From: an uncultured Pseudomonadota bacterium
GTDB lineage: Bacteria; Pseudomonadota; Alphaproteobacteria; Rs-D84
Reading direction: 5' to 3'
Length of the DNA stretch: 64,000 nt
NCBI GenBank assembly: GCA_949292385.1
Contig: CASEZC010000010.1
Coordinates: 7,432 to 71,431 of the forward strand
In this document: piece by piece, positions 5,530 through 60,286 of the stretch
How the letters are laid out: every line of letters starts with the position of its first letter
Position numbering within the stretch: position 1 is the stretch's first letter
The notes under the pieces: generated by a model
Told to the model about the DNA's origin: nothing
Database searches by the model: none
The model's input: only the letters and a program-made list of their open reading frames with translations
Program-made: the position numbers and the translations under genes

Positions 5530-5571
5530 GCTTTACTCTTTTTTATTATCGTAGATAATTATAATCGAAAA

Positions 5572-19852: not shown

Positions 19853-21862
19853 TTATTTTAACTTATTAAACTTTCCCAAAGGCACACATAAAAATATAGA
19901 AAACAATAAAATTATAATCATCCACCCATCACGTCCGATAGTCCTATATACAGTATTATGCGCCCCCCAGACAAATCCATCCAAACAACCAGCCTGTCCA
20001 ACAGATAAGTAAGATATAATTTCCCCGTCAGACGAAATAAAAGCACTTATACCTGAATAATTGGCCCGCACAATCGGCATACCTGATTCTATTGCATATC
20101 TGCGAACCATATCAAGATGCTGATAAGTTCCAGGTGTATTACCAAACCAAGTATCATTAGTTATATTTATAATCATATCTGGGTTCCGCTGACTTGGAAT
20201 CAAGGAATCAGAAAAAATAATTTCATAACAAATGGCCGGTGCAAAAGCGAACGAACCTGTATTTAAATTTAAGCTCATAAGTTCCGCCCCTGCCCCCTTA
20301 GACAGTTGCCCAGGTGTCGGGATAATATCACCTAACGGTCTGTATTCGCCAAAAGGTACTAAATGCGATTTACTGTAAATCTTATTTATTTTTCCTGAAT
20401 CATCAGCAATAACCATAGAGTTAAACATCTTACCAGCAGAATAATATTGCGCCCCTATTATAACAGGTTTATTCAGGTATTCCGCAATCGGCATACTATC
20501 GCCATCTAAAACAACAAAAGGATATGATGTTTCTGGAAATACCAACAAATCAAAATCACCTGGTGCAGATGCAAGTTCAACCAAGTTTCTTATATTAATT
20601 TCAGCATTTCTCAAAGCCTCTTGTCTTGAATGAGTAGCTTTCTGTACGGCGCTTTCTGCCGGCTGCACGATACGAATAACATAATTATTATCTGATTGTA
20701 AATGCGCAGCTTGGATATTTTTATAACCAACAAACGCACCCAAAGCAAATAAGAAACAGAAGATAAAGAACACCGCCCAAGAAAGTTTTGACTTATAATT
20801 AGTCAGCAATTCTACGACGGCCGCCACTAATCCTATTGTTATAAAAGAAAGCCCCAATGCCCCCCACAACGACATAGAATTTGCAATTACTGGAAACGGC
20901 ATAAAAATATTAGCCACAGGGTTCCAAGGGAATCCCGTCAAAAACCATTCTCTCAACCACAAAACAAACGTCCAAAACGAAGCAAATAAAATCGGTCTAC
21001 ATGGCGGAAACGTGCACATACGTGAAATTAACACAAAAGGAATTGCGAATATAACCCCACCTAAAATTCCTATACCAAACAGTGCTGGAACAGTCCATAT
21101 TGCAAACTCAGCTGCAAGTTCTGGAACCACATATATAGAGTTTAAGACCCACCAAAACATCGCCATTGAATACGCAACACTAAAAGGCAAAATTCTTAAA
21201 AAAGATTTTATCCAACTTACCTTATTAGCACGCACAACAAATTTATAAGCAGCAGCAACAGCTATTAATGTTGCCCACCACATATTAAAAGGCGCAAATC
21301 CCAAAGAAGCTACAGCACCTAAAGCGAACAAAATAATATTTTGAAAAAGTCCATCTTCTTTTATTTTTATCTTTTTAAAAAATGATAAAAACTTACTTCC
21401 AGGACAACAAGAAGAATCGCTGCATATAGGCAAATCCGGCATATATGGATTTTTTATACCAAGTTTTTTTAATATTTTTATTTCTGTTTTTTCCATTACT
21501 TCTGCTTCGTCATCTTTTATATGATCATAACCTAATAGATGTAATATCCCATGAACAACCATATGTGCAGTATGTTCTTCAACAGAAATATTTAAATCTT
21601 TTGCTTCACGTTTTACTGTATCCAAAGAAATAAAAATATCACCCAACAAAATATCATCTTGCAATTCAAACGATAATACATTCGTAGCTTTATCAATACT
21701 ACGATAATCTTTATTCAGCTTATGAATTTCTTTATCATCAATTAACGTTATAGAAACTTCAGAGTTTTTATAATTCCTACCAACAACTGCATTTGCAATT
21801 TTTTCAAAATCAATTTTATACTTCTTCCAACGAGAATCTTGATAATTAATATAAACTTTCAT
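19853..21862 (-). CDS. ybeY-lnt: In-frame fusion (or same-frame overlap) of endoribonuclease YbeY (N-terminal, about 140 aa) with apolipoprotein N-acyltransferase Lnt (C-terminal, about 528 aa)
   Basis: Residues 1-140 carry the YbeY H..HG.LHL.GYDH motif (HMVVHGILHLLGYDH). From Met141 (coords 21442-21440, MPDLPI...) onward it is a multi-TM Lnt with a CN-hydrolase domain (E...K...C catalytic region, AICYEIIF). No stop codon separates the two parts. Confidence 0.75.
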   Translation of the reverse strand: MKVYINYQDSRWKKYKIDFEKIANAVVGRNYKNSEVSITLIDDKEIHKLNKDYRSIDKATNVLSFELQDDILLGDIFISLDTVKREAKDLNISVEEHTAHMVVHGILHLLGYDHIKDDEAEVMEKTEIKILKKLGIKNPYMPDLPICSDSSCCPGSKFLSFFKKIKIKEDGLFQNIILFALGAVASLGFAPFNMWWATLIAVAAAYKFVVRANKVSWIKSFLRILPFSVAYSMAMFWWVLNSIYVVPELAAEFAIWTVPALFGIGILGGVIFAIPFVLISRMCTFPPCRPILFASFWTFVLWLREWFLTGFPWNPVANIFMPFPVIANSMSLWGALGLSFITIGLVAAVVELLTNYKSKLSWAVFFIFCFLFALGAFVGYKNIQAAHLQSDNNYVIRIVQPAESAVQKATHSRQEALRNAEINIRNLVELASAPGDFDLLVFPETSYPFVVLDGDSMPIAEYLNKPVIIGAQYYSAGKMFNSMVIADDSGKINKIYSKSHLVPFGEYRPLGDIIPTPGQLSKGAGAELMSLNLNTGSFAFAPAICYEIIFSDSLIPSQRNPDMIINITNDTWFGNTPGTYQHLDMVRRYAIESGMPIVRANYSGISAFISSDGEIISYLSVGQAGCLDGFVWGAHNTVYRTIGRDGWMIIILLFSIFLCVPLGKFNKLK

Positions 21863-26567: not shown

Positions 26568-27281
26568 TTAGAACAAAATGTTTACTTTTGCACCAATTTG
26601 GAAATTATCACTTTCGAACTCATAGTCAAGATGACCGATATATTGAGTACGTCCGTATTGACGAATTACCTTTCCACCCAACCATTCTTGGTTATATTTT
26701 GGATTTGTGGCTTTACGTATCATAAAAGAAGTCCCCAGACGCCAATCTTGACTGACACGGAAATAAGCCTCTGGTTCAAAATCTATATAAGCCATTCCAC
26801 GAACGTCATCAAAAATCCAGCTAGATTTTATTGTTGCCGCCAACGTAAGCCCTGCCCACTGACGACCAAACCTATAACCAGCATAATAAGTAGAATCTGC
26901 AAAATAAGGTGTTCTTACATGAGAACTGCCACCAAACTTTAAACCGAACAAAACATCTGAAATGATTCTTGCACTGTTACCATCAGCTGTACTTACACGA
27001 TAAACACCGCCCAAATCTATACTAGAAAAACCATCTTCCGTACCATCAAAATCTTGCTGAAAATGAACGTTTGCAGCAATGGTTAATCTGTTATTTAATC
27101 CATAAGACACTGTCTGTCCAAGGCGCAAAATACTATCCCAATAAGTAAGAGATGTTTCTGATAAAAAATCTTCAAATCCTAACATATACAAAGGATCCGA
27201 AGTATCCCTATCTAAGACGTTAGCAAGCGCCCCATTGCAAAAAAAACAAGAAATTAAAAATACAGAAAAAAATTTGCGCAT
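26568..27281 (-). CDS. Outer-membrane beta-barrel protein, smaller paralog (signal peptide, C-terminal Phe)
   Basis: Start taken at MRKFFSVFLISCFFCNGALA (signal peptide); alternating amphipathic beta-strand pattern; ends ...GAKVNILF (aromatic C-terminus typical of BAM substrates). Confidence 0.6.
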   Translation of the reverse strand: MRKFFSVFLISCFFCNGALANVLDRDTSDPLYMLGFEDFLSETSLTYWDSILRLGQTVSYGLNNRLTIAANVHFQQDFDGTEDGFSSIDLGGVYRVSTADGNSARIISDVLFGLKFGGSSHVRTPYFADSTYYAGYRFGRQWAGLTLAATIKSSWIFDDVRGMAYIDFEPEAYFRVSQDWRLGTSFMIRKATNPKYNQEWLGGKVIRQYGRTQYIGHLDYEFESDNFQIGAKVNILF

Positions 27282-27317
27282 AATCCCTCTCCAACAAACC
27301 AAAGCACTAAAACATAT

Positions 27318-27343
27318 TAGAACTCTTGCCAACAAGAGTTCTA
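27318..27343. other. Perfect 11-bp-stem hairpin between the two tandem OMP genes
   Basis: TAGAACTCTTG-ccaa-CAAGAGTTCTA. No strong U-run on the OMP-sense strand, so it may be a partial terminator or attenuator between paralogs. Confidence 0.5.
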
Positions 27344-27357
27344 ATATTCGTATTCAA

Positions 27358-28554
27358 TTAAAACAAGAACGTTGCTTGCAATCCAACAGAAGTTTCAGAG
27401 TAATTATCTAAATCTGCTGTACCCATTTTAACAAAGTTTCCTGTATCAATATCCGTTCCCCAGAAAGTCAAATTCTTTCCGTCTGCAGAATCATAAACAG
27501 CTGTTTTTGCATACAAGTTCAAAGCAACCCAATCATTTGGCTGCCAACCAATTGCAGCTTTCAAACTCGCTTGGTTATGCCAATCATAGTTACCTATTAC
27601 GCCTTCGAAATTCAGCGTCCAATCTTCATCTAATACGCTGAATATACCAAGACCGCCTTCTACATAAAATACGCTGCTTACATCCGTATTATATGCCAAG
27701 AATATTGTTGACTTTGCACCATCTTCTGTAACGCCTTCTATACCATTACCATAAGAATTTCCATCAAAATCAACATACCAACCACGGGCTAATCCATATA
27801 TTGTAGAAGAACCTACTTTATAACCGCCCTTTAAATCCAACAAAATATTGTTAGAAATATCTTTCTGATACTGATAGTAACCAGACAAAGTAGCAATCCA
27901 CTTGTCGTTATCTACGAAGCGCCACTGAGCACCAACACCGAACAAGTTCAAACCGTTATCGTCCATAGTATCATCTGGTGCAGTTGACCAATCAAATTCA
28001 TAACTTGAAATATCATATTTCAACATTGCCAAAACTGCGATACGGTCTGTAATACCATAACTGAAGTCTTCTTTGATAGAAAACTGGTCCATATTCCATT
28101 TTCCGTTTACATCTGAAACAGTACCTGTCGGCAACAGTTTAATATCATAAGAATTCATTGTATAAGACAAATCTGTAACAGAGCCAAACTTACCTTTCAA
28201 AGGTTGGAAGAAAGGATGCGCCAAGAAATACTTACGCTTTAATTCACTGCTGTATGTTTCAGCGCGTGTTGTACGAACAGTTGTAGAATTATTACCCGCA
28301 TATTGCTTATACAACTGACTGCGGTTAGCAGGCTGAGTGTAATACAAATTTTTTGCATCTTTTTCATCATATGTTTTCGTAGAAGTACGAGTTTCATATT
28401 TCTGATAATTAACCTGCGTACGTTCACGAACAGCAGGCTGTCCAGTTAAGTCAACGCTTGATGCGGCACGAGTGCCAGAATTTGTTGCAGCAAACGCAGG
28501 CAACACACCGAACAAAGCAAGTCCACACATAAACAAAGAAACTTTATTTTTCAT
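27358..28554 (-). CDS. Outer-membrane beta-barrel protein, larger paralog
   Basis: Start taken at MKNKVSLFMCGLALFGVLPAFA (signal peptide); ends ...VGLQATFLF; beta-strand periodicity throughout. Confidence 0.6.
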   Translation of the reverse strand: MKNKVSLFMCGLALFGVLPAFAATNSGTRAASSVDLTGQPAVRERTQVNYQKYETRTSTKTYDEKDAKNLYYTQPANRSQLYKQYAGNNSTTVRTTRAETYSSELKRKYFLAHPFFQPLKGKFGSVTDLSYTMNSYDIKLLPTGTVSDVNGKWNMDQFSIKEDFSYGITDRIAVLAMLKYDISSYEFDWSTAPDDTMDDNGLNLFGVGAQWRFVDNDKWIATLSGYYQYQKDISNNILLDLKGGYKVGSSTIYGLARGWYVDFDGNSYGNGIEGVTEDGAKSTIFLAYNTDVSSVFYVEGGLGIFSVLDEDWTLNFEGVIGNYDWHNQASLKAAIGWQPNDWVALNLYAKTAVYDSADGKNLTFWGTDIDTGNFVKMGTADLDNYSETSVGLQATFLF

Positions 28555-28657
28555 ATTAAATTCTCCTTTGACGAGAATTATACCACAAAAAGCACCCATA
28601 AAAAAGGAATTAATAAAAAAATCCCTATAAAACCAATATATAGGGATTTTTACTTAT

Positions 28658-38399: not shown

Positions 38400-39458
38400 A
38401 TGTTTAGACTTAATATAATAAACAGATTTTTAATGCGCCGCTTTTTTTCCGGTTTCGGCTTGGTGATGCTTGTAGTTTGCGGAATAATACTTGCGGTAAC
38501 ATTTGTAGAAAGATTGCCATCTAACCCTACTGTTATGGCAGCACTATCGGAATCTTGGGTTAGACTCCTAGAATACGTTCCTCTATTTTTGCCGGTTGCT
38601 GTGTTTATGGGAACCCTGCTCTCGTCTTATAATTTAACGAAGTCCAGCGAAAAAATAATTATTGCCAGTGCTGGCCTATCTCCGTACCAAATGGCTAGGC
38701 CCTTTTTAATCGGTGCGGCACTGATTGGTATAATCGCAACAACTTTAATTAATCCGTACTCGGTAAAACTAAGCGAACAAAATATCACGCCTGACCACCT
38801 TGTATTAATAGACAATACCATATGGTTACGTGAATCATCTGATAATGGTTATATAACAATGAATGCAAAAAACATGCATAAATCTGGAAATATATTGTTA
38901 TTCGAAAACGCAACTGTATACATTCAAAACCAGCAATTCAAATTAATAGAACGCGTAGAAACAGACACTTTAACTCTTTCTGACGCAGGTTTAGACGCAA
39001 CAAAGGCAGAGACTTGGGATGAAAATGGGGTACGCAAAATAACAAGCTGGCACGCAGACACATTGTTAAGCCCGCAAACTGTATTGGACAGATATCTGCA
39101 ACCAGATCAAATATCTTTCTGGAACTTACCAAGCTTTATAAAAAAGATGCAAGAAATTGGTGCCCCGATTCGCGGTCATCTTGTTCAGTTCTGGACATTA
39201 CTGTTTTTACCACTTTCTATGATAGCAATGGCAACGCTTGGAGTCGCATTTTCGCAAACACGTCAACGTCGAAATTACAGCTTCGGTTTAAAATTCAGTG
39301 CTGGGATAATAACATGCTTTGCGGTATATTTTCTGACTAACCTTTTTAATGCACTTGGCTCAACGGGCACACTGCCACCATTACTTGCAATCATTGCACC
39401 ACCTTTAATAATTATTGCTGCAGCTGGCGCATTTATAGCAAGCTTTGACACAATATAA
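38400..39458 (+). CDS. LPS export ABC permease, LptF/LptG (YjgP/YjgQ) family
   Basis: 352 aa, 6 TM with a large periplasmic loop, YjgP/YjgQ topology. Confidence 0.7.
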   Translation: MFRLNIINRFLMRRFFSGFGLVMLVVCGIILAVTFVERLPSNPTVMAALSESWVRLLEYVPLFLPVAVFMGTLLSSYNLTKSSEKIIIASAGLSPYQMARPFLIGAALIGIIATTLINPYSVKLSEQNITPDHLVLIDNTIWLRESSDNGYITMNAKNMHKSGNILLFENATVYIQNQQFKLIERVETDTLTLSDAGLDATKAETWDENGVRKITSWHADTLLSPQTVLDRYLQPDQISFWNLPSFIKKMQEIGAPIRGHLVQFWTLLFLPLSMIAMATLGVAFSQTRQRRNYSFGLKFSAGIITCFAVYFLTNLFNALGSTGTLPPLLAIIAPPLIIIAAAGAFIASFDTI

Positions 39459-43462: not shown

Positions 43463-43468
43463 AAAAAA

Positions 43469-43488
43469 AACGGGGATTACCCCGTTTT
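43469..43488. terminator. Bidirectional rho-independent terminator after serS
   Basis: aaaaaaaaaACGGGGattaCCCCGTttttttt. Confidence 0.85.
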
Positions 43489-43489
43489 T

Positions 43490-43966
43490 TTAATATTGTT
43501 TGTTTCTAATAGATTCCAAAGAAACCTTTGTTGCAAAAGCTTTTTCTGATTTAAATGAAAATACAATATCTTTAAAGAACGAAGTCGATTTTGCATAATT
43601 CCATTTCTTTATTGCCAACAACAAATGTTCTTCCTTATCAAAAATAGTATTACCATTGTAATATTCATCTATGGCGTGCAAAACCTGAGAGAATGCCAAC
43701 CATACAGAATTATCGACTACAATCCCCTTTGCATTTTTTTTGCAAAAGACTTCCGCATCAGGCTCTAAATTTTGATTTATGCGAGTCCCATAATCAGACA
43801 ATCTTTTAGGGTCTTGCGCAATTTTATTGATAACATCAATATTTTTAATGATAGCTTCGTATTCTTTTTTATCTTTTGCTTTTTCTGTTCTTTTTTTCAA
43901 AAACTCGTTAACAGATGTAAAAAAATCTTTTATTGTTAAATCATAGTCAATAATAGTTTTTTTCAT
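43490..43966 (-). CDS. Hypothetical protein (158 aa), Lys-rich, no signal peptide or TM
   Basis: Clean ORF between two strong terminators and promoter regions; no family recognised by eye. Confidence 0.4.
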   Translation of the reverse strand: MKKTIIDYDLTIKDFFTSVNEFLKKRTEKAKDKKEYEAIIKNIDVINKIAQDPKRLSDYGTRINQNLEPDAEVFCKKNAKGIVVDNSVWLAFSQVLHAIDEYYNGNTIFDKEEHLLLAIKKWNYAKSTSFFKDIVFSFKSEKAFATKVSLESIRNKQY

Positions 43967-44123
43967 TTTTTCCCTCTTTTTATTATCTCACGAATAATTA
44001 TAGTACAAAAACACAATATGTCAATAAAAATATTAAAATATTTAAAATGTATATTTCTTGAAAATCGGAATTTATGTTATAATCTATAAAATACGAAAAA
44101 TTAGTAACTTATAGGGTAAAAAT

Positions 44124-45956
44124 ATGAAAATTCGCAATATAGCAATAATTGCACACGTTGACCATGGAAAGACAACATTGGTTGACAACATGTTAAAACA
44201 AGCAGGAACATTTCGTGAAAATGAAAAAGTTGCAGAACGCGTTATGGACAGCGGTGATATTGAACGCGAACGCGGTATTACGATATCCGCAAAGCCTACA
44301 TCTATTTTATGGAACGGTTATAAGATAAACATTGTGGACACACCGGGGCACGCAGACTTTGGTGGTGAAGTAGAACGTATTTTATCAATGGTAGACGGTG
44401 TTGTTTTATTAGTTGATTCTGCCGAAGGTCCATTACCACAAACAAAGTTCGTTTTATCAAAGGCATTAAAACTTGGCTTGCGTCCTATTGTTTGCATAAA
44501 CAAAGTAGACCGTGCTGACGCAAGACCAGAAGAAGTATTAACAGAAACATTTGATTTATTTGATAAATTGGGCGCAACTGATTCTCAGCTGGATTTCCCA
44601 TATTTATATTCTGTTGGTCGTGACGGTTGGGCTGTACGCGATTTAAATGACGAACACAAAGATTTAACACCTTTGTTTCAATTAATCGTAGACCATGTTC
44701 CTGCCCCAGATTGCAATGGAACGCGTTGTCAATTAGATGCCCCATTTAAAATGTTGGCAACAACATTGGAAGCAGACCCTTACGTTGGCAGAATTTTAAC
44801 TGGCAAGATTGAATCTGGAACTGTAAAAGTTGGTCAATCCGTAAAAGCTATCAACATGAAAGGCGAATTCATAGAAAACGCAAAAATAACAAAGATTATT
44901 GAACACCGTGGTGTTGAGAAAGTATCTTTAGATTCCGCATCTGCTGGTGACATTGTTGTTATTGCAGGTTTTTCAAAAGCAACTGTGGCTGATACGCTTT
45001 GCGCACCAGAAGTAACAGAACCGATACCGGCAATGCCAATTGATCCACCTACCCTAACGATGACATTCTTTGTAAACACATCACCACTTGCAGGAAAATC
45101 TGGAAAGAAGTTAACATCTCGCATGATAGGTGAAAGATTGTTTAAAGAAGCAGAAACAAACATTGCTTTAAAAGTCACACAAAGTGAAAATAACGAAGCA
45201 TTTGAAGTATCTGGTCGTGGCGAATTACAGCTGGGTATTTTAATTGAAACAATGCGTCGTGAAGGTTTTGAATTATCTGTATCACGTCCACGCGTTGTTA
45301 TGCACGACGGTCCAAACGGTGAAAAGTTGGAACCAATTGAAGAAGTTGTTATTGACGTAGATGATGAATTCAGTGGTGTTGTTATTGAAAAAATGACTAA
45401 ACGTAAAGCAACAATAACCGAAATGAAATCATCAGGTGCAGGCAAAACAAGAATTGTATTTTCTGCGCCATCACGTGGTCTTATCGGTTATTTATCAGAA
45501 TTCAGAACAGATACCAGAGGAACAGGTATAATGAACCGCGTCTTTTCAGGTTACGAACCATACCGCGGTCCAATACAGCAGTACAGACCGGGTGTACTTG
45601 TATCTATGGAAAACGGTTCTGCTGCAACATATGCATTGTTCAACCTGCAACCACGTGGAACTCTATTCATAGGGCCACAAACAGAAGTATATTCTGGGAT
45701 GATTATCGGTGAACACAGCAAAGAAAATGATTTGGAAGTAAATCCAATAAAAGGTAAAGAACTTACCAACATACGTTCTGTTACGGCTGATGAAAAATTG
45801 TTCTTGGCACCACCTCGTAAAATGTCTTTGGAAGAAGCACTTTCTTACATACAAGACGACGAATTGGTTGAGGTAACACCTGCAACAATACGCTTACGTA
45901 AAAAAGAATTGGACAGCAACGTACGTAAAAAGACCAGAAAGAATACCGAAATTTAA
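44124..45956 (+). CDS. typA: Translational GTPase TypA/BipA
   Basis: G-domain (AHVDHGKTTL, DTPGH, NKVD) and BipA C-terminal domain; 610 aa. Confidence 0.9.
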   Translation: MKIRNIAIIAHVDHGKTTLVDNMLKQAGTFRENEKVAERVMDSGDIERERGITISAKPTSILWNGYKINIVDTPGHADFGGEVERILSMVDGVVLLVDSAEGPLPQTKFVLSKALKLGLRPIVCINKVDRADARPEEVLTETFDLFDKLGATDSQLDFPYLYSVGRDGWAVRDLNDEHKDLTPLFQLIVDHVPAPDCNGTRCQLDAPFKMLATTLEADPYVGRILTGKIESGTVKVGQSVKAINMKGEFIENAKITKIIEHRGVEKVSLDSASAGDIVVIAGFSKATVADTLCAPEVTEPIPAMPIDPPTLTMTFFVNTSPLAGKSGKKLTSRMIGERLFKEAETNIALKVTQSENNEAFEVSGRGELQLGILIETMRREGFELSVSRPRVVMHDGPNGEKLEPIEEVVIDVDDEFSGVVIEKMTKRKATITEMKSSGAGKTRIVFSAPSRGLIGYLSEFRTDTRGTGIMNRVFSGYEPYRGPIQQYRPGVLVSMENGSAATYALFNLQPRGTLFIGPQTEVYSGMIIGEHSKENDLEVNPIKGKELTNIRSVTADEKLFLAPPRKMSLEEALSYIQDDELVEVTPATIRLRKKELDSNVRKKTRKNTEI

Positions 45957-45973: not shown

Positions 45974-46912
45974 ATGAAACAAATCGACATTTCAAAAAAA
46001 GATTATTTTTGGCCTAAACTGCTAACTTGTTGGATTCCGTCAAGAATATATCGTCGTGCAATTCGTGGCATTTTAACAATCGGTGTAACCAATTATTTTA
46101 GAATTTTACGCGAAGACAAACGTAAAAAATTTGACTACGAGTTTGCAATTGGCGCAATTATGAAAAATGAAGGGCCATACTTAAAAGAATGGCTGGACTT
46201 TCATATACTTGTAGGCGTACAAAAATTCTATCTTTATGACAACGATTCCACAGACAATACAGAAGAAATACTTAAACCCTATATTAAATCTGGAATAGTT
46301 GAATATAAAAAAATTCACGGACGCGGCAAACAACGTGAAGTATATCTTGAAATAGTAAATAATCATCGCGATAAAATGCGTTGGCTTTGCTTACTTGATT
46401 TAGACGAATTTTTAGTTCCTGTTAAACACAAAACTGTACAAGAATTTTTACACACTCTTCCAACATTCAGTCAGTTAATTATTGGTTGGGTAATTTATGG
46501 TTCATCAGGTCATGAAGAAAAACCAGATGGGTTAGTAATAGAAAACTACAAAAAACATGCAAAAGTAAACTGGGGAATAAAATCAATTATAAACCCAAGA
46601 ATGATGGTATATTTAAGCAGTCCACACAGTAACTATGTTGCAGGATTTACCATTGATGAAACTGGCAGAAAGCGTGGTTTTGTTAACCAAGAAAAAGAAC
46701 CGACTACTCATGATTTTATAAGATGTAATCATTATATAACAAAATCACATGCTGAATATATCGCAAGATGTAATCTTGGCGATGCAGGCAGTGGTGAAAA
46801 AGTAAAAACATTTGGCAAAGACCCAGAAACGAATTTCAAAAAATTCGACAAAAGCGAAGTTTATGATTCAATAATGGATAAATATATTGAAGAATTAAAA
46901 AATGACAAATAA
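45974..46912 (+). CDS. Glycosyltransferase, GT92/DUF23-like (GT-A fold)
   Basis: AIMKNEGPYLKEWLDFHILVGVQKFYLYDNDSTD signature of Glyco_transf_92-like enzymes. Confidence 0.55.
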   Translation: MKQIDISKKDYFWPKLLTCWIPSRIYRRAIRGILTIGVTNYFRILREDKRKKFDYEFAIGAIMKNEGPYLKEWLDFHILVGVQKFYLYDNDSTDNTEEILKPYIKSGIVEYKKIHGRGKQREVYLEIVNNHRDKMRWLCLLDLDEFLVPVKHKTVQEFLHTLPTFSQLIIGWVIYGSSGHEEKPDGLVIENYKKHAKVNWGIKSIINPRMMVYLSSPHSNYVAGFTIDETGRKRGFVNQEKEPTTHDFIRCNHYITKSHAEYIARCNLGDAGSGEKVKTFGKDPETNFKKFDKSEVYDSIMDKYIEELKNDK

Positions 46913-47750
46913 AAGACTATTCTTAATTGCTGGCTATGATGCAAAAAAACAAATAGATGAATCTTTAATACATCTAGTTCGTTCTATGTCAAGACTTGGT
47001 GATACGGTTGTTTATATGGATAGTGACTGCAATGAACAACAAATATCAAAGCTTAGTAAATACACATTATATTGCGCTGCTTCACGTCATGAAGAATATG
47101 ATTTTGGTTCTTATAAGCTTGCATATATTTGGGCAAAAAATAATTTAAATTTATCTGACTATGATTTTTTATATTTACTAAATGATTCTGTATATGGACC
47201 TCTGCAAGACATAGAGCCGTTTTTAATAAAAATGGAATCACTATCTTCTGACGCATTTGGTCTGGTTTGCAATCCACATAAAAATCATCCTCATATTCAA
47301 TCTTGGTTTATCGGATGCAAACAATCTGTATTTCTAACAAACTGGTTTGACGATTTTATGACAAGCATAACCAAGGTTGCAGATAAAGGTTGTGTTACTA
47401 AATTATACGAGCAAGGTTTTTCCAATATGATAATAAATCATGGATTAAGCTGGGAGTGCCTGTATACCGTATCTGGCAGAAAGATATATAACGACGTAAA
47501 AAAGTTATACAAACGCAACCTGCCCTTTATAAAAAAAGCCGCCTTTATAAGACATAATGGAAGACTTGGCAAACAGATTTTATATGTATTAGATAATGTA
47601 AACAAAGAAATAAAAGACAGCATACTAATAAACGCCAAAAGAACTTGGGGCAAAGAATATATAAACTGGCTTTTAACAAAAAATCCGATTAAAATACTGT
47701 ACAGAAACATTACATACGTAATAAAAAAACTCTTTAAAGAGGGAATATGA
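46902..47750 (+). CDS. Putative glycosyltransferase (rhamnan-synthesis RgpF-like)
   Basis: 282 aa; overlaps the upstream GT by 11 nt; distant resemblance to the RgpF family (by eye, uncertain). Confidence 0.35.
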   Translation: MTNKRLFLIAGYDAKKQIDESLIHLVRSMSRLGDTVVYMDSDCNEQQISKLSKYTLYCAASRHEEYDFGSYKLAYIWAKNNLNLSDYDFLYLLNDSVYGPLQDIEPFLIKMESLSSDAFGLVCNPHKNHPHIQSWFIGCKQSVFLTNWFDDFMTSITKVADKGCVTKLYEQGFSNMIINHGLSWECLYTVSGRKIYNDVKKLYKRNLPFIKKAAFIRHNGRLGKQILYVLDNVNKEIKDSILINAKRTWGKEYINWLLTKNPIKILYRNITYVIKKLFKEGI

Positions 47751-48592
47751 CAAAAAAAACTTCACATACAAAAAAAATTGCTGCCATAACTATGGCCCGC
47801 AATGATGAGTTCTTTCTAAACCGTTGGATAAAATATTACGGTTCACAAATTGGCGAAGAAAATTTATATATATATTTAGATGGCCTTGATCAAAAGACTC
47901 CAGCAGGCGCAGTAAAATCAAACATAACAAAATTACCTCATAAAGAAGAACAAGTACAAAAAGGCGACAAAACCAGAATACTGTTATTATCTGATTTGGC
48001 CAAAAAATTATTTTCAAACGGTTATGATATTGTAATCGGTTGCGATTGTGACGAATTTTTAATTATTGACCCTGCCCTTAAAATATCTTTACCAGAATAT
48101 TTATCAAACATAAAAAATAGAACATCGGTTTCTGGTTTAGGTTTAGATATAGGCCAAGATTTAAATTCCGAAGCAACACTAAACCAAGCAAAACCATTTT
48201 TAACGCAAAGAAAATTTGCACTACTTTCTACCAGATATACAAAACCCATTGTGCTATTTAAACCGGCAATTTGGGGCAGCGGTTTTCACAGTGTAAAAGG
48301 TCATAATTTTCATATAGATAAAAATCTGTACTTATTACACTTTGGCAGCGTTGACTTTGACATGATAAAAAACAAAGTTGGCGACAGAAATCCTTCTTGG
48401 AAAAAGCACTTAAAAAAACGTGCCAGAACAATAGAATTGATAACAAAATCGAAAAAACGTAATCACTCAAAAACAGTTGCACGTTTTATGCAGACCTTGC
48501 TGCGCCCTATATACGACTTAAACAAACCAGCAATGCTTGGATTAAAATGGATTACAGAAATACCGGAACGTTTTAAAGAAACAGGTATATAA
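47747..48592 (+). CDS. Glycosyltransferase, GT92/GT2-like (GT-A fold)
   Basis: AAITMARNDEFFLNRWIKYYGSQIG...LYIYLDG and CDCDEF(L) DxD-like motif; ATGA overlap with the upstream gene. Confidence 0.5.
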   Translation: MTKKTSHTKKIAAITMARNDEFFLNRWIKYYGSQIGEENLYIYLDGLDQKTPAGAVKSNITKLPHKEEQVQKGDKTRILLLSDLAKKLFSNGYDIVIGCDCDEFLIIDPALKISLPEYLSNIKNRTSVSGLGLDIGQDLNSEATLNQAKPFLTQRKFALLSTRYTKPIVLFKPAIWGSGFHSVKGHNFHIDKNLYLLHFGSVDFDMIKNKVGDRNPSWKKHLKKRARTIELITKSKKRNHSKTVARFMQTLLRPIYDLNKPAMLGLKWITEIPERFKETGI

Positions 48593-49738
48593 TTATTTAT
48601 AACTTTTTATCAAATCAACTATTTGAAGTGACACATTTTCTGCATCAAATCTTTTTAAAGATTTTGATGCATTTTTTATCATCGTTTTTATATCTACCTG
48701 CCCGTTCCAAACAGCAGTCAAACAATCAGATAATTGTTCTGCGTTTCCAGGCTCAAATAATAATCCAGCTTTTCCATCAAGTAATATTTCACGTGGGCCA
48801 TTTCTGCAATCAGAAGAAATATTCAATACATCCAGAGCAGACGCCTCGGTTAAAACAGTTGGCAAACCTTCAGCCCTACTAGACAAAATATTTGCAATCG
48901 AATTTTTCATATATCCAAATGGATTTGACATAGCCCCTGTAAAAATAACATTGTTTTTTACGGGCAAACTTTCTGCATATTCTTTATATCTTCCAGCAAA
49001 ACTTCCGTCACCTATTATATATAAGTTAACTTTTGGCTTTTTATTTTTAAGCCAGAAATCATTAAAAGCTTTTATCAAAGTATTAATGTCTTTATCCGCA
49101 TACAATCTGGACAAACATACAAAATAATTTTTATCGTTTGGCACACTTGCCAAATCAGCTTTTTCCTTTATAGCAAGAATATCTACAGGATTATAAATTC
49201 TTATTAGTTTATTTTTATATTCAGGCCATTTTTCTGTTACCTCGTCCATAAAGCCATCAGTCAAAGCAACCAATCTATCATAATCTTTCATATATCTTAT
49301 ATAATTACCAGATAAAAAAACATCTACAGAAGAATGCCACCAAACTAATTTCGGTTTATCTATATTTTTCAATTCGTTATCAAAAGAAAAGTTATAATAA
49401 TCTACAAAAACATCTATATCTTTAAAGTATTTTTTATTCACAAATTTTCTTCTAAACCAACGATAAACATCGCGCAAAGAATGTTGAATTAATCTTGTTA
49501 AAAAGAAGTGCGCCAAATCAGTGCCAAGCCAACGACAAGGATACAAAACTTTTACCGTAACCTCTGGATGTTTATTAAACCAATCTGCATATAACGGTTC
49601 TTTAATTTTTACATATGAAATAAACTCGATATCTAAATCTTTACGCGATATAAGCTTTTCAAGCGTTCTTATAAAAACACTTTCGACCCCACCTATTTTC
49701 ATATCACGCAAACAAAACGCGACCTTAACTTTTTTCAT
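48593..49738 (-). CDS. Glycosyltransferase family 4 (GT-B, retaining)
   Basis: C-terminal EGLPTVLTEA (E-x7-E) motif of GT4 enzymes. Confidence 0.75.
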   Translation of the reverse strand: MKKVKVAFCLRDMKIGGVESVFIRTLEKLISRKDLDIEFISYVKIKEPLYADWFNKHPEVTVKVLYPCRWLGTDLAHFFLTRLIQHSLRDVYRWFRRKFVNKKYFKDIDVFVDYYNFSFDNELKNIDKPKLVWWHSSVDVFLSGNYIRYMKDYDRLVALTDGFMDEVTEKWPEYKNKLIRIYNPVDILAIKEKADLASVPNDKNYFVCLSRLYADKDINTLIKAFNDFWLKNKKPKVNLYIIGDGSFAGRYKEYAESLPVKNNVIFTGAMSNPFGYMKNSIANILSSRAEGLPTVLTEASALDVLNISSDCRNGPREILLDGKAGLLFEPGNAEQLSDCLTAVWNGQVDIKTMIKNASKSLKRFDAENVSLQIVDLIKSYK

Positions 49739-49756
49739 AAAAACACCTTAAAGCAT

Positions 49757-50776
49757 TTATTTGTTATTTATAAAACAAACGATATCGCAACGAATTTTCT
49801 TTGCCCACTTTGTGCAAGGATTGTCCAAAGCACCCATCTTTTCTAATTCACGAAAAGCCTGACGCGCGACTTCCATATCTTCGTTATTATCAATATATTT
49901 AACTTTTCTGTACGCCCACTTTATAAAATACCATTTGAACTTTTCAGACCATTGTTGCATTTGATAGCAGTTCGCTTTTTCTTTATACAGCAAGAAAGAA
50001 TTTTTTATTCCCACGCACAAACTCTGCAATATCTTTAATTGCTTTGCAGACAAAACAATTCCACCAAAATTAGGTATATAAAAATATAATGGTAAAGGAC
50101 AAATTGTAATCTTAGGATTTTTTAACATGACTTCGCTCCACCAAGGGAAGTCTTCAAACAAAATGCCTTTTATAAAAGGTACATCTTCTATCAAAGATTT
50201 TTTATACAAATTTTTCCAAACCTGACAATGTTTAATCAGCCATTTTCTTTTAGGATTAAACGGATTGTGGGCACTTTCCGTTGCATACTCAAAAACATTA
50301 TCTGTAACTAATGTCTTTACCTGGGCTGGATTATATCTTTTATTTATGCGTCCTGGCACAACATCATCTGTACTCAACCCCAGTTTATGACGAACCATTA
50401 ATTGAGGTCTGTAAATTCTGTCATAAGTAAAAGAGACTATATCAGACGCATCACGTTTAGCCAGAAACATTGATATTTCTAATGTCTGAGGATGTATAAA
50501 GTCATCACTATCAAGATATAAAACATATTCACCGGTTGCGACTTTCATCCCCGCATTACGCGCATCCGAAAGCCCTCCATTTTTCTTATCAACAATCTTA
50601 AACCTAGAATCTTTTGCACAGTATTCTTTAAGAATCTCCATACAATTATCAGGACTGCCATCATTAACGCAAATTGCTTCCCAATCTGAAAAAGTCTGAT
50701 TTAAAACGCTATCCAGACAACGACGCAAATATTTTTCAACGTTATATATAGGTATAATGATGGAAACAGCCGTCAT
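49757..50776 (-). CDS. Glycosyltransferase family 2
   Basis: SIIIPIYNVEKYLRRCLDSVLNQTF...VNDGSPD...LDSDD GT2 signature. Confidence 0.85.
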   Translation of the reverse strand: MTAVSIIIPIYNVEKYLRRCLDSVLNQTFSDWEAICVNDGSPDNCMEILKEYCAKDSRFKIVDKKNGGLSDARNAGMKVATGEYVLYLDSDDFIHPQTLEISMFLAKRDASDIVSFTYDRIYRPQLMVRHKLGLSTDDVVPGRINKRYNPAQVKTLVTDNVFEYATESAHNPFNPKRKWLIKHCQVWKNLYKKSLIEDVPFIKGILFEDFPWWSEVMLKNPKITICPLPLYFYIPNFGGIVLSAKQLKILQSLCVGIKNSFLLYKEKANCYQMQQWSEKFKWYFIKWAYRKVKYIDNNEDMEVARQAFRELEKMGALDNPCTKWAKKIRCDIVCFINNK

Positions 50777-50790
50777 GAATAATCCTTTTT

Positions 50791-51687
50791 TTACATTTTC
50801 AACATTTCATCAGCAAAAGAGCCTTTTATTGGATTTTTAGCTTGTTTATATGTAGTTTTTTGAAAGAACGCCCCAGATGTAACTTCATCAAAAACTTTTT
50901 TATCAAAAGGTTTATCCGCATACGCCCACCACAAAGCATGCGTTGGGTCCTGATCAACATGAGGCATTTTTGCGAAATATTTTTTAGCCCGTGGGTCATT
51001 CATTACCAACGTTCTAAATAATAATTGATGCATAAAATAATCAAAGCTGTGATTCTCATGCATCCAGTAATCCAAAATCATTGCGCGCCATGCGTCTAAT
51101 AAGTAAGCTCCCTTTCTAGCTCTTATAAAGCAATTTTGCATAAAGCTATATGGACTGCCCACTTTTTGTCCAGCCATATAAACAAAGAAGTCTTCATCAA
51201 CAATCCATTGTGGTATTGCGGACGTTGCAAAACCTGTTGAATCCAACCAAAAACCACCATGTTCATATAATAACTCTACCCTACAAATATCCGCAAAATG
51301 AGCATTTTTTATTTTACCCTGCTTGCGCTTTTCTATAATTTCATCAGGTAAAGTTATATAATCGAACAAAGTATTTTCATCTAACACAACTAATTCTTGC
51401 GAACAATGCTTGCGAATATTGCGAAAGCAAGCCTTTACCAATTCAGGTGCATTTTTTTCACCTTGCAACCAGATAGAAAAAATCTTTTCATTTTTATCAT
51501 CTTTTATTGGTTTTCTTTCTTTCACAGCTGCAGCCGCAGGCAAATATCTTTTAAAATATTTTGGTATAACATCCAAGATTACATCGCAACGTACAGCCCG
51601 TCTAACTTCCCTTGGACGCCAAAACCAATTTAAAACATGCCCACGAATGATAATTTCAGTCATCGCCCAGCATCTTGCAAGATTCAT
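50791..51687 (-). CDS. Glycosyltransferase with DXD sugar-binding region (capsular-polysaccharide-synthesis / GT32-like). Possible alternative start at 51663.
   Basis: ADICRVELLYEHGGFWLDST matches the Gly_transf_sug / Caps_synth motif. Confidence 0.6.
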   Translation of the reverse strand: MNLARCWAMTEIIIRGHVLNWFWRPREVRRAVRCDVILDVIPKYFKRYLPAAAAVKERKPIKDDKNEKIFSIWLQGEKNAPELVKACFRNIRKHCSQELVVLDENTLFDYITLPDEIIEKRKQGKIKNAHFADICRVELLYEHGGFWLDSTGFATSAIPQWIVDEDFFVYMAGQKVGSPYSFMQNCFIRARKGAYLLDAWRAMILDYWMHENHSFDYFMHQLLFRTLVMNDPRAKKYFAKMPHVDQDPTHALWWAYADKPFDKKVFDEVTSGAFFQKTTYKQAKNPIKGSFADEMLKM

Positions 51688-51701: not shown

Positions 51702-52787
51702 TTATTCTTCATCAGATAAAACTTCGACGGCACTTTCATCATCTACCGGCCCAGTTGTCATTTCTTCTGCGATACCTGATGACTTTGCCATAATTTTATC
51801 TAACAATTCTTGTTGTGCTTCTGGGTGGTCTTTCAACCATGCACGTGCATTCGCTTCACCCTGCCCCATACGTTCATTATTGTAAGAATAGAAACTTCCA
51901 GCCTTTTCAATAAAGTCATATTTAACGCCCATATCCAATATTTCACTAATTCTTGAAATACCTTCACCATACATAATTTTAAAATCAACTGTACGGAAAG
52001 GAGGCGCAACTTTATTTTTTACAATCTTTACGCGTGTTTCATTACCAACGATATTTTCTTTATCCTTAATTTGCCCTGTACGGCGAATATCAAGACGTAC
52101 AGACGCATAGAACTTTAACGCATTTCCACCCGACGTAGTTTCTGGGTTACCAAACATAACGCCAATTTTCATACGAATCTGATTAATAAATATCAATAAA
52201 GTATTACTGCGGGAAACACTTCCTGCCAATTTCTTTAAAGACTGGCTCATCAATCTTGCGGTTGTACCTACAAAAGAATCACCGATATTACCTTCTAATT
52301 CAGCCTTTGGTACCAAAGCAGCAACCGAATCGATTACCACAACATCAACAGCACCAGACTTAATAAGAGTATCTGCAATTTCCAACGCCTGTTCACCAGA
52401 ATCCGGCTGAGAAATAATTAAGTTAGCAACATCAACGCCTAACTTTTTAGCGTAAGACGGGTCCAATGCATTTTCAGCATCAATATAAGCGCAAGTACCG
52501 CCTTTTTTCTGAGCCTCTGCAACGGCATGCAACGCCAATGTAGTTTTACCAGAACTTTCCGGTCCATAAATTTCAACAATTCTTCCCCTAGGATAACCAC
52601 CGATACCAAGCGCGATATCAAGTCCCAAGGAACCTGATGAAATAGCTTCTATATTTTGCTGACTGCCATCACCCATTTTCATGATGGCTTCTTTACCGAA
52701 TTGCTTTTGAATTTGAGCCAGCGCAGATTCCAATGCAGGATTTTTTGCCGGTGCGCCATTTTCTTTTACTGCTTCTTTCTTTGCCAT
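51702..52787 (-). CDS. recA: Recombinase RecA
   Basis: GPESSGKTT Walker A and RecA core; short N-terminal extension and acidic C-terminal tail. Confidence 0.95.
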
Positions 52788-52876: not shown

Positions 52877-54061
52877 TTATTTTTTAGCCAATAAAACTAA
52901 TGCAGAAAAGACACCAATTACAGCCGTAACCAACCAAACAGCAGATGTTGTTCCAAATGCAGTTATACAAACAGCCCCCAATATTGGTGCAATAACATTC
53001 GGTAAATTAACACTGGTTCTAAACACACCATAAAATTTTGTTTGTTCTGATTTTTTTGTATTATCAAAGAACAATAAATCATGCACAGATTCCATCAACG
53101 CCCCTGATATTTGCCACATAACAAATATAGCAAGCAACGGGAATCCTGTTACAAACGTGGCTAAAGCAGAAAAAGCCGCAAAAGATAAGAATCCAATCAG
53201 CAACCACAACTTTTTACCATACTTTCTGACCAACTTCGCCATCATTTCGGATAAAATAAGATAAGGAATAATACCCAGCGTCAACACCCAACCAAGAGTA
53301 TCTTTCGAGAAGCCATTTTCTATAACAACGATTGGCACATAAAGATATCGCATTGCACGCAAAGAATAATAACCAAAATTCACGGCATACGCTCTTAACA
53401 TTCCAGCCTTAGAAAAAAATGCAATTGAATTTTTCCATAACGCCTTAAAAGTTCTTCTTGGGTCAACCGGGCTAATTTTTTTATCTTCTTGAACAACTTT
53501 AAACAATTTAAACGACATCCAACCCGCCAAATAAATTAATGCAGACGCAAAGAATGCCGCCCTATTAGTGAACTGACCAGCAATCGCCACAGCTATCATT
53601 GGAGCAAACAATGCACCAATATTAAGCCACAAATGGTACCTAGAATTAAGTTTAGCCATACCTATATTTTTTGAAAAGTCTGACATAAATAAAGGAATCA
53701 GTACTCCAACCAACGTTACGGCTATACCAGTTGTATAATCTAAAATAATAAAAGTGCTTGGACGAATAGAAAAGCTCATCATAGCATAACCTATTGCCAG
53801 CAACAACATTACCGAATAAAAAACTTTTACTTTAGAAAATCTGCGAAACAGCTCGTTTGCAAACAAGCCAACTATCATACAAAACGCCGCATATATAGCC
53901 ACATAAATACCAACGACGGCAGAACTTTGAAATATTTCTAACAAAACCAAAGAGTAAACAGCATTATAAATACCATCTGCAAAACCGGTAAACAAACCAA
54001 GATTTGCAAATGAAAAACCACTTATACCACTTTTTACAGAAATATATTTATCCTTAGCCAT
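52877..54061 (-). CDS. MFS transporter
   Basis: 394 aa, 12 predicted TM helices, MFS topology. Confidence 0.7.
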   Translation of the reverse strand: MAKDKYISVKSGISGFSFANLGLFTGFADGIYNAVYSLVLLEIFQSSAVVGIYVAIYAAFCMIVGLFANELFRRFSKVKVFYSVMLLLAIGYAMMSFSIRPSTFIILDYTTGIAVTLVGVLIPLFMSDFSKNIGMAKLNSRYHLWLNIGALFAPMIAVAIAGQFTNRAAFFASALIYLAGWMSFKLFKVVQEDKKISPVDPRRTFKALWKNSIAFFSKAGMLRAYAVNFGYYSLRAMRYLYVPIVVIENGFSKDTLGWVLTLGIIPYLILSEMMAKLVRKYGKKLWLLIGFLSFAAFSALATFVTGFPLLAIFVMWQISGALMESVHDLLFFDNTKKSEQTKFYGVFRTSVNLPNVIAPILGAVCITAFGTTSAVWLVTAVIGVFSALVLLAKK

Positions 54062-54137
54062 AGCCAGAATATTTTATCACAAAAAAGTAATATTTCAAAG
54101 TGCAACAAAAAACCTGCTTTCCAGCAGGTTTAGTTTT

Positions 54138-59695: not shown

Positions 59696-60286
59696 TTATT
59701 CCGATTTAGTACACCGAAAATATTCATTTCCGTTTACTTTCAATATATATTCAGCATCTTTATAAATATCTCCAACGCCCTTATCTTTAATTACAAAGCC
59801 AACCATAGCATCACCTGATAAAAACGAGTAGTTTGCCTGTGAATAAAAATCTCTATCCGTACCTAAAACATATTGAGTATCATTTATATTCAAAATTACC
59901 CGGTCATCACAAACTGTCGCAGTTACTAAATAATTCTTACAATCTAAACTCATTTTAGAAATAATATTTTCACATTTCGCCTCTAAATCAGTTTTACACC
60001 GATACCATATTTCTTCATTCATAGATTTATCTAATATCATATATTCTCCAGAATTTTGATTATAAGTAAATTCCCAGTTTTCATTAATCCAATAATCATT
60101 ATATATAGATTTCAATGTATTTTTCTGACCATTTATAACCAATTCCGCCACAGAATCATTAATACTAAAAATGCTTACATCATGATTAAAACAAGATAAA
60201 CTAACAGAATCTGCTTCACCGCAACCCAACAAAGAAACAGATAAAATAAAAAGCGAAATATATTTTATTTTGAAAAATTTTTTCAT
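59696..60286 (-). CDS. Cys-rich lipoprotein of unknown function with an internal duplication
   Basis: Signal peptide plus lipobox (LLGC); two similar segments (VAELVINGQKNTLKSIYNDYW... and RVILNINDTQYVLGTDRDFY...); 8 Cys. Confidence 0.5.
   Translation of the reverse strand: MKKFFKIKYISLFILSVSLLGCGEADSVSLSCFNHDVSIFSINDSVAELVINGQKNTLKSIYNDYWINENWEFTYNQNSGEYMILDKSMNEEIWYRCKTDLEAKCENIISKMSLDCKNYLVTATVCDDRVILNINDTQYVLGTDRDFYSQANYSFLSGDAMVGFVIKDKGVGDIYKDAEYILKVNGNEYFRCTKSE

Follow-up and report, generated by a model that had tools for sequence, protein, structure and literature searches.

A glycosyltransferase-only locus with backbone and slots between recA and typA in gut bacteria of the order Rs-D84

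Six glycosyltransferase genes between typA and recA

In the 64-kb stretch of DNA analysed here (the window; 64,000 nucleotides of contig CASEZC010000010.1, from an uncultured alphaproteobacterium of the order Rs-D84), six intact glycosyltransferase (GT) open reading frames (ORFs), designated GT_A to GT_F, lie between typA and recA (Table 1). The initial annotation had proposed this arrangement, and re-calling of the ORFs returned the same six genes with the same coordinates, overlaps and abutting stop codons, while the profiles TIGR01394 and TIGR02012 identify the flanking genes as typA and recA. GT_A and GT_B share 11 nt, and the stop of GT_B and the start of GT_C share 4 nt (ATGA). Where the two sets of genes converge, at TAATTA (48590–48595), the stop codon of GT_C (TAA, 48590–48592) abuts that of GT_D (48593–48595) with zero spacer; in relatives, by contrast, the two convergent genes share 11–20 nt at their 3' ends. 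At the outer borders, 17 nt separate typA from GT_A and 14 nt separate recA from GT_F.

Table 1. Positions in the window of the glycosyltransferase genes, their conserved flanks and neighbouring elements.
Feature	Position	Strand	Length	Description
LptF/LptG-family lipopolysaccharide (LPS) export permease	38400-39458	+		Pfam assignment
Bidirectional terminator-like hairpin	43464-43491	.		12-bp stem, T-runs on both sides; between serS and hypothetical gene; left neighbourhood limit
Promoter-like element upstream of typA	44058-44083	+		TTGAAA, 14 nt, extended -10 TGTTATAAT (44075-44083)
typA/bipA translational GTPase	44124-45956	+		Conserved flank; TIGR01394, 918 bits
GT_A	45974-46912	+	312 aa	GT92-like/PF13704; variable slot 2
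GT_B	46902-47750	+	282 aa	RgpF family; backbone
GT_C	47747-48592	+	281 aa	PF13704 (Glyco_tranf_2_4); backbone
GT_D	48593-49738	-	381 aa	GT4 (Glycos_transf_1), GT-B enzyme; variable slot 1
GT_E	49757-50776	-	339 aa	GT2; backbone
GT_F	50791-51687	-	298 aa	Caps_synth/Gly_transf_sug (GT32-type); backbone
recA	51702-52787	-		Conserved flank; TIGR02012, 538 bits
Major facilitator superfamily (MFS) transporter	52877-54061	-		About 10 hydrophobic segments; no specific NCBIfam family assignment
Bidirectional terminator-like hairpin	54110-54131	.		Between secB and MFS gene; right neighbourhood limit

How reliable is the assignment of these genes to GT families? Membership in a Pfam family was accepted where the whole-protein score exceeded the curated gathering threshold, and by this measure the family calls first made by eye hold for all six enzymes. 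GT_A matches Glyco_transf_92 (PF01697; 65.9 bits, threshold 23) together with Glyco_tranf_2_4 (63.1 bits), GT_B matches RgpF (PF05045; 60.3 bits, threshold 25), and GT_C matches Glyco_tranf_2_4 (PF13704; 42.5 bits, threshold 27.5). On the other strand, GT_D is assigned to Glycos_transf_1 (GT4, PF00534; 104.4 bits, threshold 26.4), GT_E to Glycos_transf_2 (GT2, PF00535; 131.2 bits, threshold 23.3) and GT_F to Caps_synth (PF05704; 214 bits, threshold 24.5), with an additional match to Gly_transf_sug, the DXD sugar-binding region (24.5 bits). No NCBIfam equivalog was found for any of the six. GT_B fails the full-length RgpF architecture: its match covers only profile positions 2–221 of 503, the N-terminal part. 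Its homologues measure about 280 aa in all 120 cases among the matches listed, and its relatives carry the NCBI name 'rhamnan synthesis F family protein'. We considered the NCBIfam matches of GT_D and GT_E to WaaB, PglJ and PRK10073 as evidence for an acceptor and rejected them, as all lie far below their cutoffs. GT_D scores 88 bits with PRK09922 (WaaB; cutoff 385), followed by PglJ and PglH (87.8 and 72.9 bits, cutoffs 500–600), with SdgA, likewise far below its cutoff, also listed; GT_E scores 135 bits with PRK10073 (cutoff 423).

All six enzymes lack transmembrane segments. DxD-type motifs are present in GT_A ('LLDLDEFL' at residue 142), GT_C ('GCDCDEFL' at residue 100), GT_E ('LDSDD' at residue 89) and GT_F. 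A recent paralogous origin of GT_A and GT_C was rejected, their alignment being limited to the DxDEFL motif. The structural models of GT_B and GT_F (predicted local distance difference test, pLDDT, 95.4 and 89.3) both adopt the GT-A fold, and their top Foldseek matches are all GT-A enzymes (GfsA, Och1, glycogenin, GT6). For GT_B, the best match in the PDB is GfsA with a template modelling (TM) score of 0.49, which denotes a likeness at the level of the fold only. GT_F is most similar to the fungal mannosyltransferase Och1 (GT32), followed by retaining GT-A toxins and glycogenin. A sequence search with GT_A, GT_B, GT_C and GT_F against all PDB chains returned nothing meaningful. At least four of the six enzymes are of the GT-A type, and GT_D is a GT-B enzyme by family.

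The scanned region contains 8 terminator-like sites, compared to 7.4 expected from shuffled sequences, and the two hairpins of Table 1 are its only convincing bidirectional ones. At the convergence point the hairpin scan is empty, as had been claimed from the first reading of the sequence. The Shine-Dalgarno junction sequence between recA and GT_F is repeated between GT_F and GT_E, the one notable repeat of the border scan. Given the short gaps at both borders, the missing terminator and this repeated junction, two transcription units are probable, typA-A-B-C and recA-F-E-D, with typA and recA as their first genes. These convergent units would end stop-to-stop with no terminator between them, and the GT genes are probably expressed by read-through from the typA promoter on one side and from the recA promoter or that of the upstream MFS gene on the other. 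The promoter-like element upstream of typA was read by eye, and its 14-nt spacing falls outside the 16–18 nt criterion of the scanner.

Backbone, slots and history of the locus in relatives

Several ENA metagenome scaffolds, the longest of 301 kb, carry the same sequence. For GT_F, more than 1,100 homologues are on record, the best 120 of which are 74–100% identical; one of them (76%) derives from Candidatus Enterousia excrementavium, and RecA at the locus of that species is 94% identical to that of the window. These matches place the organism with Candidatus Enterousia (order Rs-D84), a group of reduced-genome gut bacteria. A RecA scan, in which one close relative was followed by identities of at most 72% among the matches listed, could be read as pointing to an isolated lineage; this reading was dropped given the number of GT_F homologues. 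Enterousia, a member of the GTDB order Rs-D84, is found in the guts of farm animals, has genomes of 0.75–1.0 Mb without tricarboxylic acid cycle, respiration or upper glycolysis, and is thought to depend on partners (PMC12306168). We found no paper that describes the envelope or the recA-typA locus of Enterousia or Rs-D84.

Is the cluster confined to the window? Loci for comparison were gathered from the contexts of GT_F and GT_A homologues, from one genome scan and from one metagenome scan, and individual related loci or contigs are referred to by L-numbers. Those that contain both recA and typA, 28 in number, represent 21 species-level lineages, their flanks being pairwise either at least 99% or less than 90% identical in nucleotide sequence. 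The order recA> F> E> (slot 1) <C <B (slot 2) <typA is present in 28 of the 28 loci. The backbone consists of GT_F (Caps_synth/GT32), GT_E (GT2), GT_C (PF13704-like) and GT_B (RgpF-like) and was also found in L148 and L152; GT_F is always the first gene after recA, and GT_C is always paired with GT_B. In slot 1, some lineages have the GT4 gene seen in the window, some a second GT2 or a Stealth-family gene, and others a different GT2- or GT4-like gene or no gene at all. Slot 2 accommodates between zero and four genes, drawn from GT92 (as in the window), GT61, GT8, GT6, HtrL/YibB-like, GT2, an RgpF paralog and a hexapeptide acyltransferase. GT_A is absent in L007, L093–L095 and L105, and elsewhere GT61, GT8, GT6, HtrL-like or GT2 genes take its place. 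In total, 18 architectures were counted among the 21 lineages, with recA-typA gaps of 4.8–8.7 kb. The six-gene order of the window recurs in a second species, which has a rearranged right flank. Within species, no difference in architecture was seen in the four multiply sampled lineages, a small sample.

The cassettes found in the slots of relatives (GT8, GT6, GT61, Stealth, hexapeptide acyltransferase) are, judged by family, typical surface-glycan decorators; the GT8 cassette scores 109.8 bits, and the HtrL/YibB-like match is weak at 22.8 bits. Slot 2 of L102 combines a GT6 gene (87 bits), of the histo-blood-group A/B transferase family, with GT8, GT61 and hexapeptide acyltransferase genes, possibly a cassette for host-glycan mimicry. 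Slot 1 of L101, L118, L124, L132, L134 and L137 is occupied, on the opposite strand, by a Stealth-family gene of the hexose-1-phosphate transferase type (CR2, 127 bits), which implies a phosphodiester-linked sugar in the predicted glycans of these six lineages.

Among the GTs, conservation declines along the locus from its recA end to its typA end. The median amino acid identity to the window is 94% for RecA and 91% for TypA. Among the backbone enzymes, GT_F is the most conserved (76%), followed by GT_E (65%), GT_C (59%) and the fastest-evolving GT_B (50%); the slot enzymes GT_D and GT_A stand at 58% and 54%. The GT_C of L105 is an outlier with 75% identity. In L152, the nearest sister species, TypA and GT_A are 98% and 93% identical to their counterparts in the window, but GT_B and GT_C only 74% and 77%, and slot 1 holds a GT2 rather than a GT4 gene. 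This mosaic indicates what would be a cassette-wise exchange.

At shorter evolutionary distance, four conspecific contigs are 99.5–100% identical, with no insertions or deletions and all ORFs intact, and their GT genes differ by 21–23 synonymous versus 8–9 non-synonymous single-nucleotide polymorphisms (SNPs). The GT genes appear to be functional and are under purifying selection. In the comparison with L002 and L003, GT_A carries 16 and GT_B 9 of 40 SNPs, every non-synonymous change falls in these two genes, and GT_D and GT_F have none. No phase-variable tract was detected in the cluster, which has no G or C run of 6 nt or more and no length variation among the four conspecific contigs. Its only homopolymers of at least 8 nt are two A8 runs at 47752–47777, within the first 30 nt of GT_C.

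Does the cluster represent a foreign insertion? It had initially been taken for a lineage-specific island inserted between housekeeping genes, and of all the readings weighed here we regard a recent horizontal acquisition as the least probable. Features that one would expect of such an island are the GC content of 0.30–0.33 at the cluster centre, compared to 0.36–0.39 in the flanks, the presence or absence of cassettes A and D between species, and the mosaic pattern with the exchange that it suggests. However, the backbone occupies the same site in all 21 lineages and in L148 and L152, and only the slots vary. Nor did the check for GC and codon-usage skew yield a signature of acquisition. The non-cluster genes of the window have a mean GC content of 0.368 (standard deviation, sd, 0.029), relative to which GT_F and GT_E are normal and GT_A to GT_D are 1.25–2.0 sd low, like other fast-evolving genes (z -0.3 to -2.0); the codon-usage distance of the six GTs ranges from -1.0 to +1.5 sd. 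The borders show no tRNA gene, att-like or border repeat or insertion sequence element, their spacers of 14–17 nt leave no room for attachment sites, and the lone integrase-family gene, at a distance of 6 kb, has syntenic counterparts in relatives. Because the backbone is fixed at the recA-typA site, the composition is unremarkable and the borders are free of repeats, we regard the locus not as an inserted island but as an ancestral feature of the genus whose cassettes turn over.

Candidate products and export routes

What could a set of GTs assemble in the apparent absence of partners? Hidden Markov model scans of the window and of 10 kb past its left end, which together cover about 74 kb of a genome of about 0.9 Mb, detected no Wzx, Wzy, Wzz, ABC exporter, initiating transferase or nucleotide diphosphate (NDP)-sugar gene. 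At this scale, the early claim that transporter, polymerase, precursor and initiating genes are lacking is borne out, and with it the description of the six enzymes as a self-contained GT-only module. The genes waaA, waaC/F, lpx and waaL were found neither in the window nor in the flanks of relatives. A screen of the window's unannotated ORFs revealed no cryptic ligase, polymerase or flippase, nor any polytopic membrane protein. The relatives give the same picture: no exporter, polymerase, initiating enzyme or NDP-sugar gene lies in or next to the locus in the 21 lineages, none of the 178 intervening proteins of the 28 loci has more than one hydrophobic segment, and the unexplained gaps are all at most 250 nt. 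The initial annotation had named as evidence against itself the recurrence of the same cluster in relatives with canonical LPS-core partners; the cluster is indeed found at the site, but the partners are absent nearby. An LptF/LptG-family permease in the window (Table 1) is context evidence that the organism makes and exports LPS or lipooligosaccharide (LOS), and LolA, Lnt and outer-membrane-protein-like products accompany it as markers of a diderm envelope.

We give an even chance to the reading that the locus specifies a species-specific, LOS-like surface glycan, assembled at the cytoplasmic face and exported along the general route of lipid A. [quoted passage not shown] Their product would be a short, species-specific oligosaccharide with roughly one residue per enzyme, in which the common part would come from the backbone enzymes and the part that distinguishes the species from the slot enzymes. 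Lipid A-core is the likeliest acceptor, giving a LOS-type product that the general lipid A flippase (MsbA) and the Lpt machinery would transfer outward. Export by this general route would explain why a dedicated flippase, polymerase, ligase and exporter are lacking at the locus in every lineage. Assembly on lipid A-core is favoured because initiating enzyme, flippase, polymerase and exporter are missing from the locus in 21 lineages and because the genome is tiny. The order of conservation, F > E > C > B, fits a scheme of conserved inner and variable outer steps. The sequences themselves show the gene content, the enzyme families, the pattern of conservation and variation, the lack of membrane partners at the locus and the purifying selection; acceptor, order of action, donors and transcription units are what we infer from them. 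Of the role initially proposed (LPS core, O-chain or similar), the surface glycan itself is still the most plausible, while its setting in an inserted island is unsupported.

Several observations weigh against an LOS-like product. Kdo transferase, heptosyltransferase, lipid A and O-antigen ligase genes are not linked to the locus, so that the case for lipid A-core as the site of attachment is argued from absence, and with the survey spanning about 74 kb, an initiating enzyme, Wzx, Wzm/Wzt or WaaL could be encoded elsewhere. The RgpF and Stealth families are best known from the synthesis of polymers (rhamnan, capsule) and not of core oligosaccharides, and Brucella wboA/B exemplify GT-only islets for an O-polysaccharide whose export genes lie elsewhere. 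The matches of GT_D and GT_E to LPS-core enzymes appear to reflect generic GT4 and GT2 similarity. Unlike classical LOS loci, the cluster has no phase-variable tracts and no change of architecture within species. Finally, upper glycolysis is reportedly missing in Rs-D84 (PMC12306168), which leaves the source of donor sugars unexplained.

Could the six enzymes instead build a repeat unit or chain on undecaprenyl phosphate, such as an O-antigen, capsule or exopolysaccharide, with initiation, export, polymerase and ligase genes elsewhere in the ~0.9-Mb genome? We hold this to be possible though doubtful. GT_B is assigned to the rhamnan-synthesis family RgpF, GT_F carries the Pfam family named 'capsular polysaccharide synthesis', and slot 1 of six lineages contains Stealth-family sugar-1-phosphate transferases, which are typical of capsules; all three speak for such a polymer, and so does the limited extent of the survey. 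Polysaccharide loci, however, usually cluster the very genes (exporter, polymerase, initiating enzyme, NDP-sugar synthesis) that 0 of 21 lineages have at or next to the locus, and in genomes so extremely reduced a second locus dedicated to export is less to be expected. The hallmarks of an O-antigen or capsule cluster, namely an initiating phosphoglycosyltransferase with export or polymerase genes, and nucleotide-sugar genes, are not found at the locus. Glycosylation of proteins, either directly in the cytoplasm (of an adhesin, pilin, flagellin or outer-membrane protein) or by way of a lipid-linked glycan and a distant oligosaccharyltransferase, seems to us decidedly unlikely. The GT-only make-up would suit direct cytoplasmic glycosylation, and contacts with other cells have been proposed to be mediated by hypothetical membrane-bound proteins (PMC12306168). 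GT_D does match PglJ, PglH and SdgA, but the scores of the first two, set against their cutoffs, denote generic GT4 similarity; the locus has no linked gene for an oligosaccharyltransferase, a flippase or a target protein, and up to nine different GTs per locus suggest a sizeable oligosaccharide rather than a single-sugar modification.

Very improbable, in our estimate, is a glycolipid of the glycosyl-diacylglycerol type, flipped by the adjoining conserved MFS protein. The MFS gene encodes the sole polytopic membrane protein adjoining the cluster, and it stays beside recA in all relatives, including L148 with its rearranged flank; in Staphylococcus, the MFS protein LtaA is a glycolipid flippase. 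On the other hand, the MFS protein has no specific family, its gene lies upstream of recA and outside the GT set, and pathways of this kind involve one to three GTs and show no hypervariability. In L148, the MFS gene adjoins that of an AMP-binding enzyme, a pair that we take to be reminiscent of lplT-aas and that suggests a function in lysophospholipid recycling. A more far-reaching reading strikes us as unlikely: the recA-typA locus would encode the whole variable surface glycan, which would serve as a species-level recognition code toward host, partner or phage, with GT6-based blood-group mimicry in some species, with the conserved essential genes recA and typA as recombination anchors in the exchange of cassettes, and with an output coupled to the responses to DNA damage and translational stress. 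The coupling would follow from the distal position of the GT genes in the predicted recA and typA transcription units.

Which known systems does the locus resemble? The LOS locus of Campylobacter, which varies in gene content and whose product is assembled at the cytoplasmic face (PMC7248181), is the closest analogue. As in Campylobacter jejuni and coli, a fixed site in a gut bacterium has conserved ends, a variable GT interior and no dedicated polymerase (PMC7248181), and the GT6 gene of L102 hints at host-glycan mimicry here as well. The Campylobacter locus, in contrast, contains a lipid A acyltransferase gene along with the heptosyltransferase genes waaC and waaF, and sialic-acid genes are often present too, whereas inner-core and lipid A genes are lacking at recA-typA. 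It also varies between strains of one species and undergoes homopolymer phase variation, while for the recA-typA locus we saw variation between species only, and no such tracts. The Campylobacter locus is not flanked by recA and typA, and the apparent embedding in the operons of these two genes has no parallel in Campylobacter. Two properties of a LOS locus are thus present, GT-only composition and conserved flanks around a GT content that varies between lineages; inner-core and lipid A genes are not physically linked to it, and for this reason we do not claim membership among LOS loci.

The enterobacterial waa (rfa) cluster likewise employs soluble or peripheral GT4, GT8 and GT2 enzymes that act sequentially on a lipid-anchored acceptor without Wzx or Wzy, and the GT8 and weak HtrL/YibB-like (22.8 bits) cassettes of relatives add to this resemblance. 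But waa clusters hold waaA, heptosyltransferases, kinases and the ligase waaL, none of which is present at recA-typA. With the streptococcal rhamnose-glucose polysaccharide (Rgp) cluster the locus shares the RgpF match of GT_B; unlike that cluster, it has no RgpC/D-type ABC transporter or rml dTDP-rhamnose genes nearby, and GT_B is short. The Brucella wboA/wboB islet and scattered wad core genes are alphaproteobacterial examples of LPS GTs that lie apart from export and precursor genes. They comprise one or two genes without backbone-plus-slot organisation, and the wbo genes are considered to have been acquired as an island, in contrast to the recA-typA locus, which appears ancestral to its genus.

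Enterousia is uncultured, widespread in animal guts and has genomes of less than about 1 Mb, of which 5–9 GTs kept at one site take up some 0.5–1% of the DNA. Since the enzyme set changes with nearly every species and the genes are under purifying selection in so small a genome, a surface glycan that matters for the lifestyle of these bacteria is implied. The locus leaves our knowledge of how such glycans are made unchanged. What stands out is the reduced-genome context and the clean organisation into backbone and slots, a clear example of a variable glycan locus inside housekeeping operons rather than beside envelope genes. It offers a ready marker for species typing in metagenomes and a target for studying how reduced-genome gut bacteria meet hosts, partners and phages.

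Other genes of the window and GT92-like genes elsewhere

The rest of the 64-kb window consists of housekeeping genes. Those for secretion and the envelope encode TatC, LolA, a penicillin-binding protein, SecDF, SecB, MltA, the MFS transporter and an apparent YbeY-Lnt fusion; those for DNA and transcription encode RecJ, FtsK, MutL, a Xer-type recombinase, DciA, RuvC, RuvA, DksA and GreA; and those for translation and metabolism encode SufS/E, ThrRS, GluRS, SerRS, DnaJ, a TrxB-like protein, YebC, MnmE and an AMP-binding enzyme. The window contains zero tRNA genes and zero Rfam matches. The apparent fusion is a 669-aa product (19853–21862, minus strand) with Pfam matches to YbeY, LNT_N and CN_hydrolase, which would join an rRNA maturation nuclease (YbeY) to apolipoprotein N-acyltransferase (Lnt). 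Two adjacent minus-strand genes without Pfam match (27358–28599 and 26568–27335) encode proteins with a signal-peptide-like N-terminus and a C-terminal Phe, and have the look of outer-membrane beta-barrels.

Upstream of typA, a 158-aa hypothetical protein without Pfam match (43490–43966, minus strand) is encoded by the fastest-evolving gene of the neighbourhood: its counterpart in L007 shares 34% identity with it, L152 has no copy, and in L148 three small ORFs take its place. This gene has a GC content of 0.285 (z -2.8) and is preceded by a promoter with a perfect 12/12 sigma-70 consensus at 44024–43997. The lowest GC content in the window (0.277) belongs to the gene of a 196-aa hypothetical protein (59696–60286, minus strand). 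Conspecific contigs differ on this right side of the locus: the 196-aa gene is present in L001 and absent in L002, and L002 carries a Peptidase_S8 gene between mnmE and ruvA. In L152, serS is split at 4404–5634 into ORFs of 88 and 332 aa, by a frameshift or an assembly error.

GT92-type enzymes had been called unusual in alphaproteobacteria, a view that the homologues of GT_A do not sustain. These number 703, several of them named 'glycosyltransferase family 92 protein [Alphaproteobacteria bacterium]'; such genes are common in the clade, and two more occur in a metagenome-assembled genome of Pseudorhodobacter sp. (L062, 15052–16907), where tandem GT92/PF13704 genes begin 19 nt after typA, the same adjacency as in the window. 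We rejected the functional link between typA and GT92 that this case suggests, as nine other Rhodobacteraceae loci do not show the adjacency; it may be a coincidence or a lead. The order recA-alaS-(0–3 genes)-typA is common to ten Rhodobacteraceae loci, and the proximity of recA and typA is therefore not unique to Enterousia. Solitary GT92-like genes are also found elsewhere in apparently related genomes. In what looks like one such reduced genome (L150/L151), a gene of this solitary kind has phage capsid-family genes, matching Phage_T7_Capsid and Phage_capsid_2, some 6 kb away at 16.9–19.0 kb.

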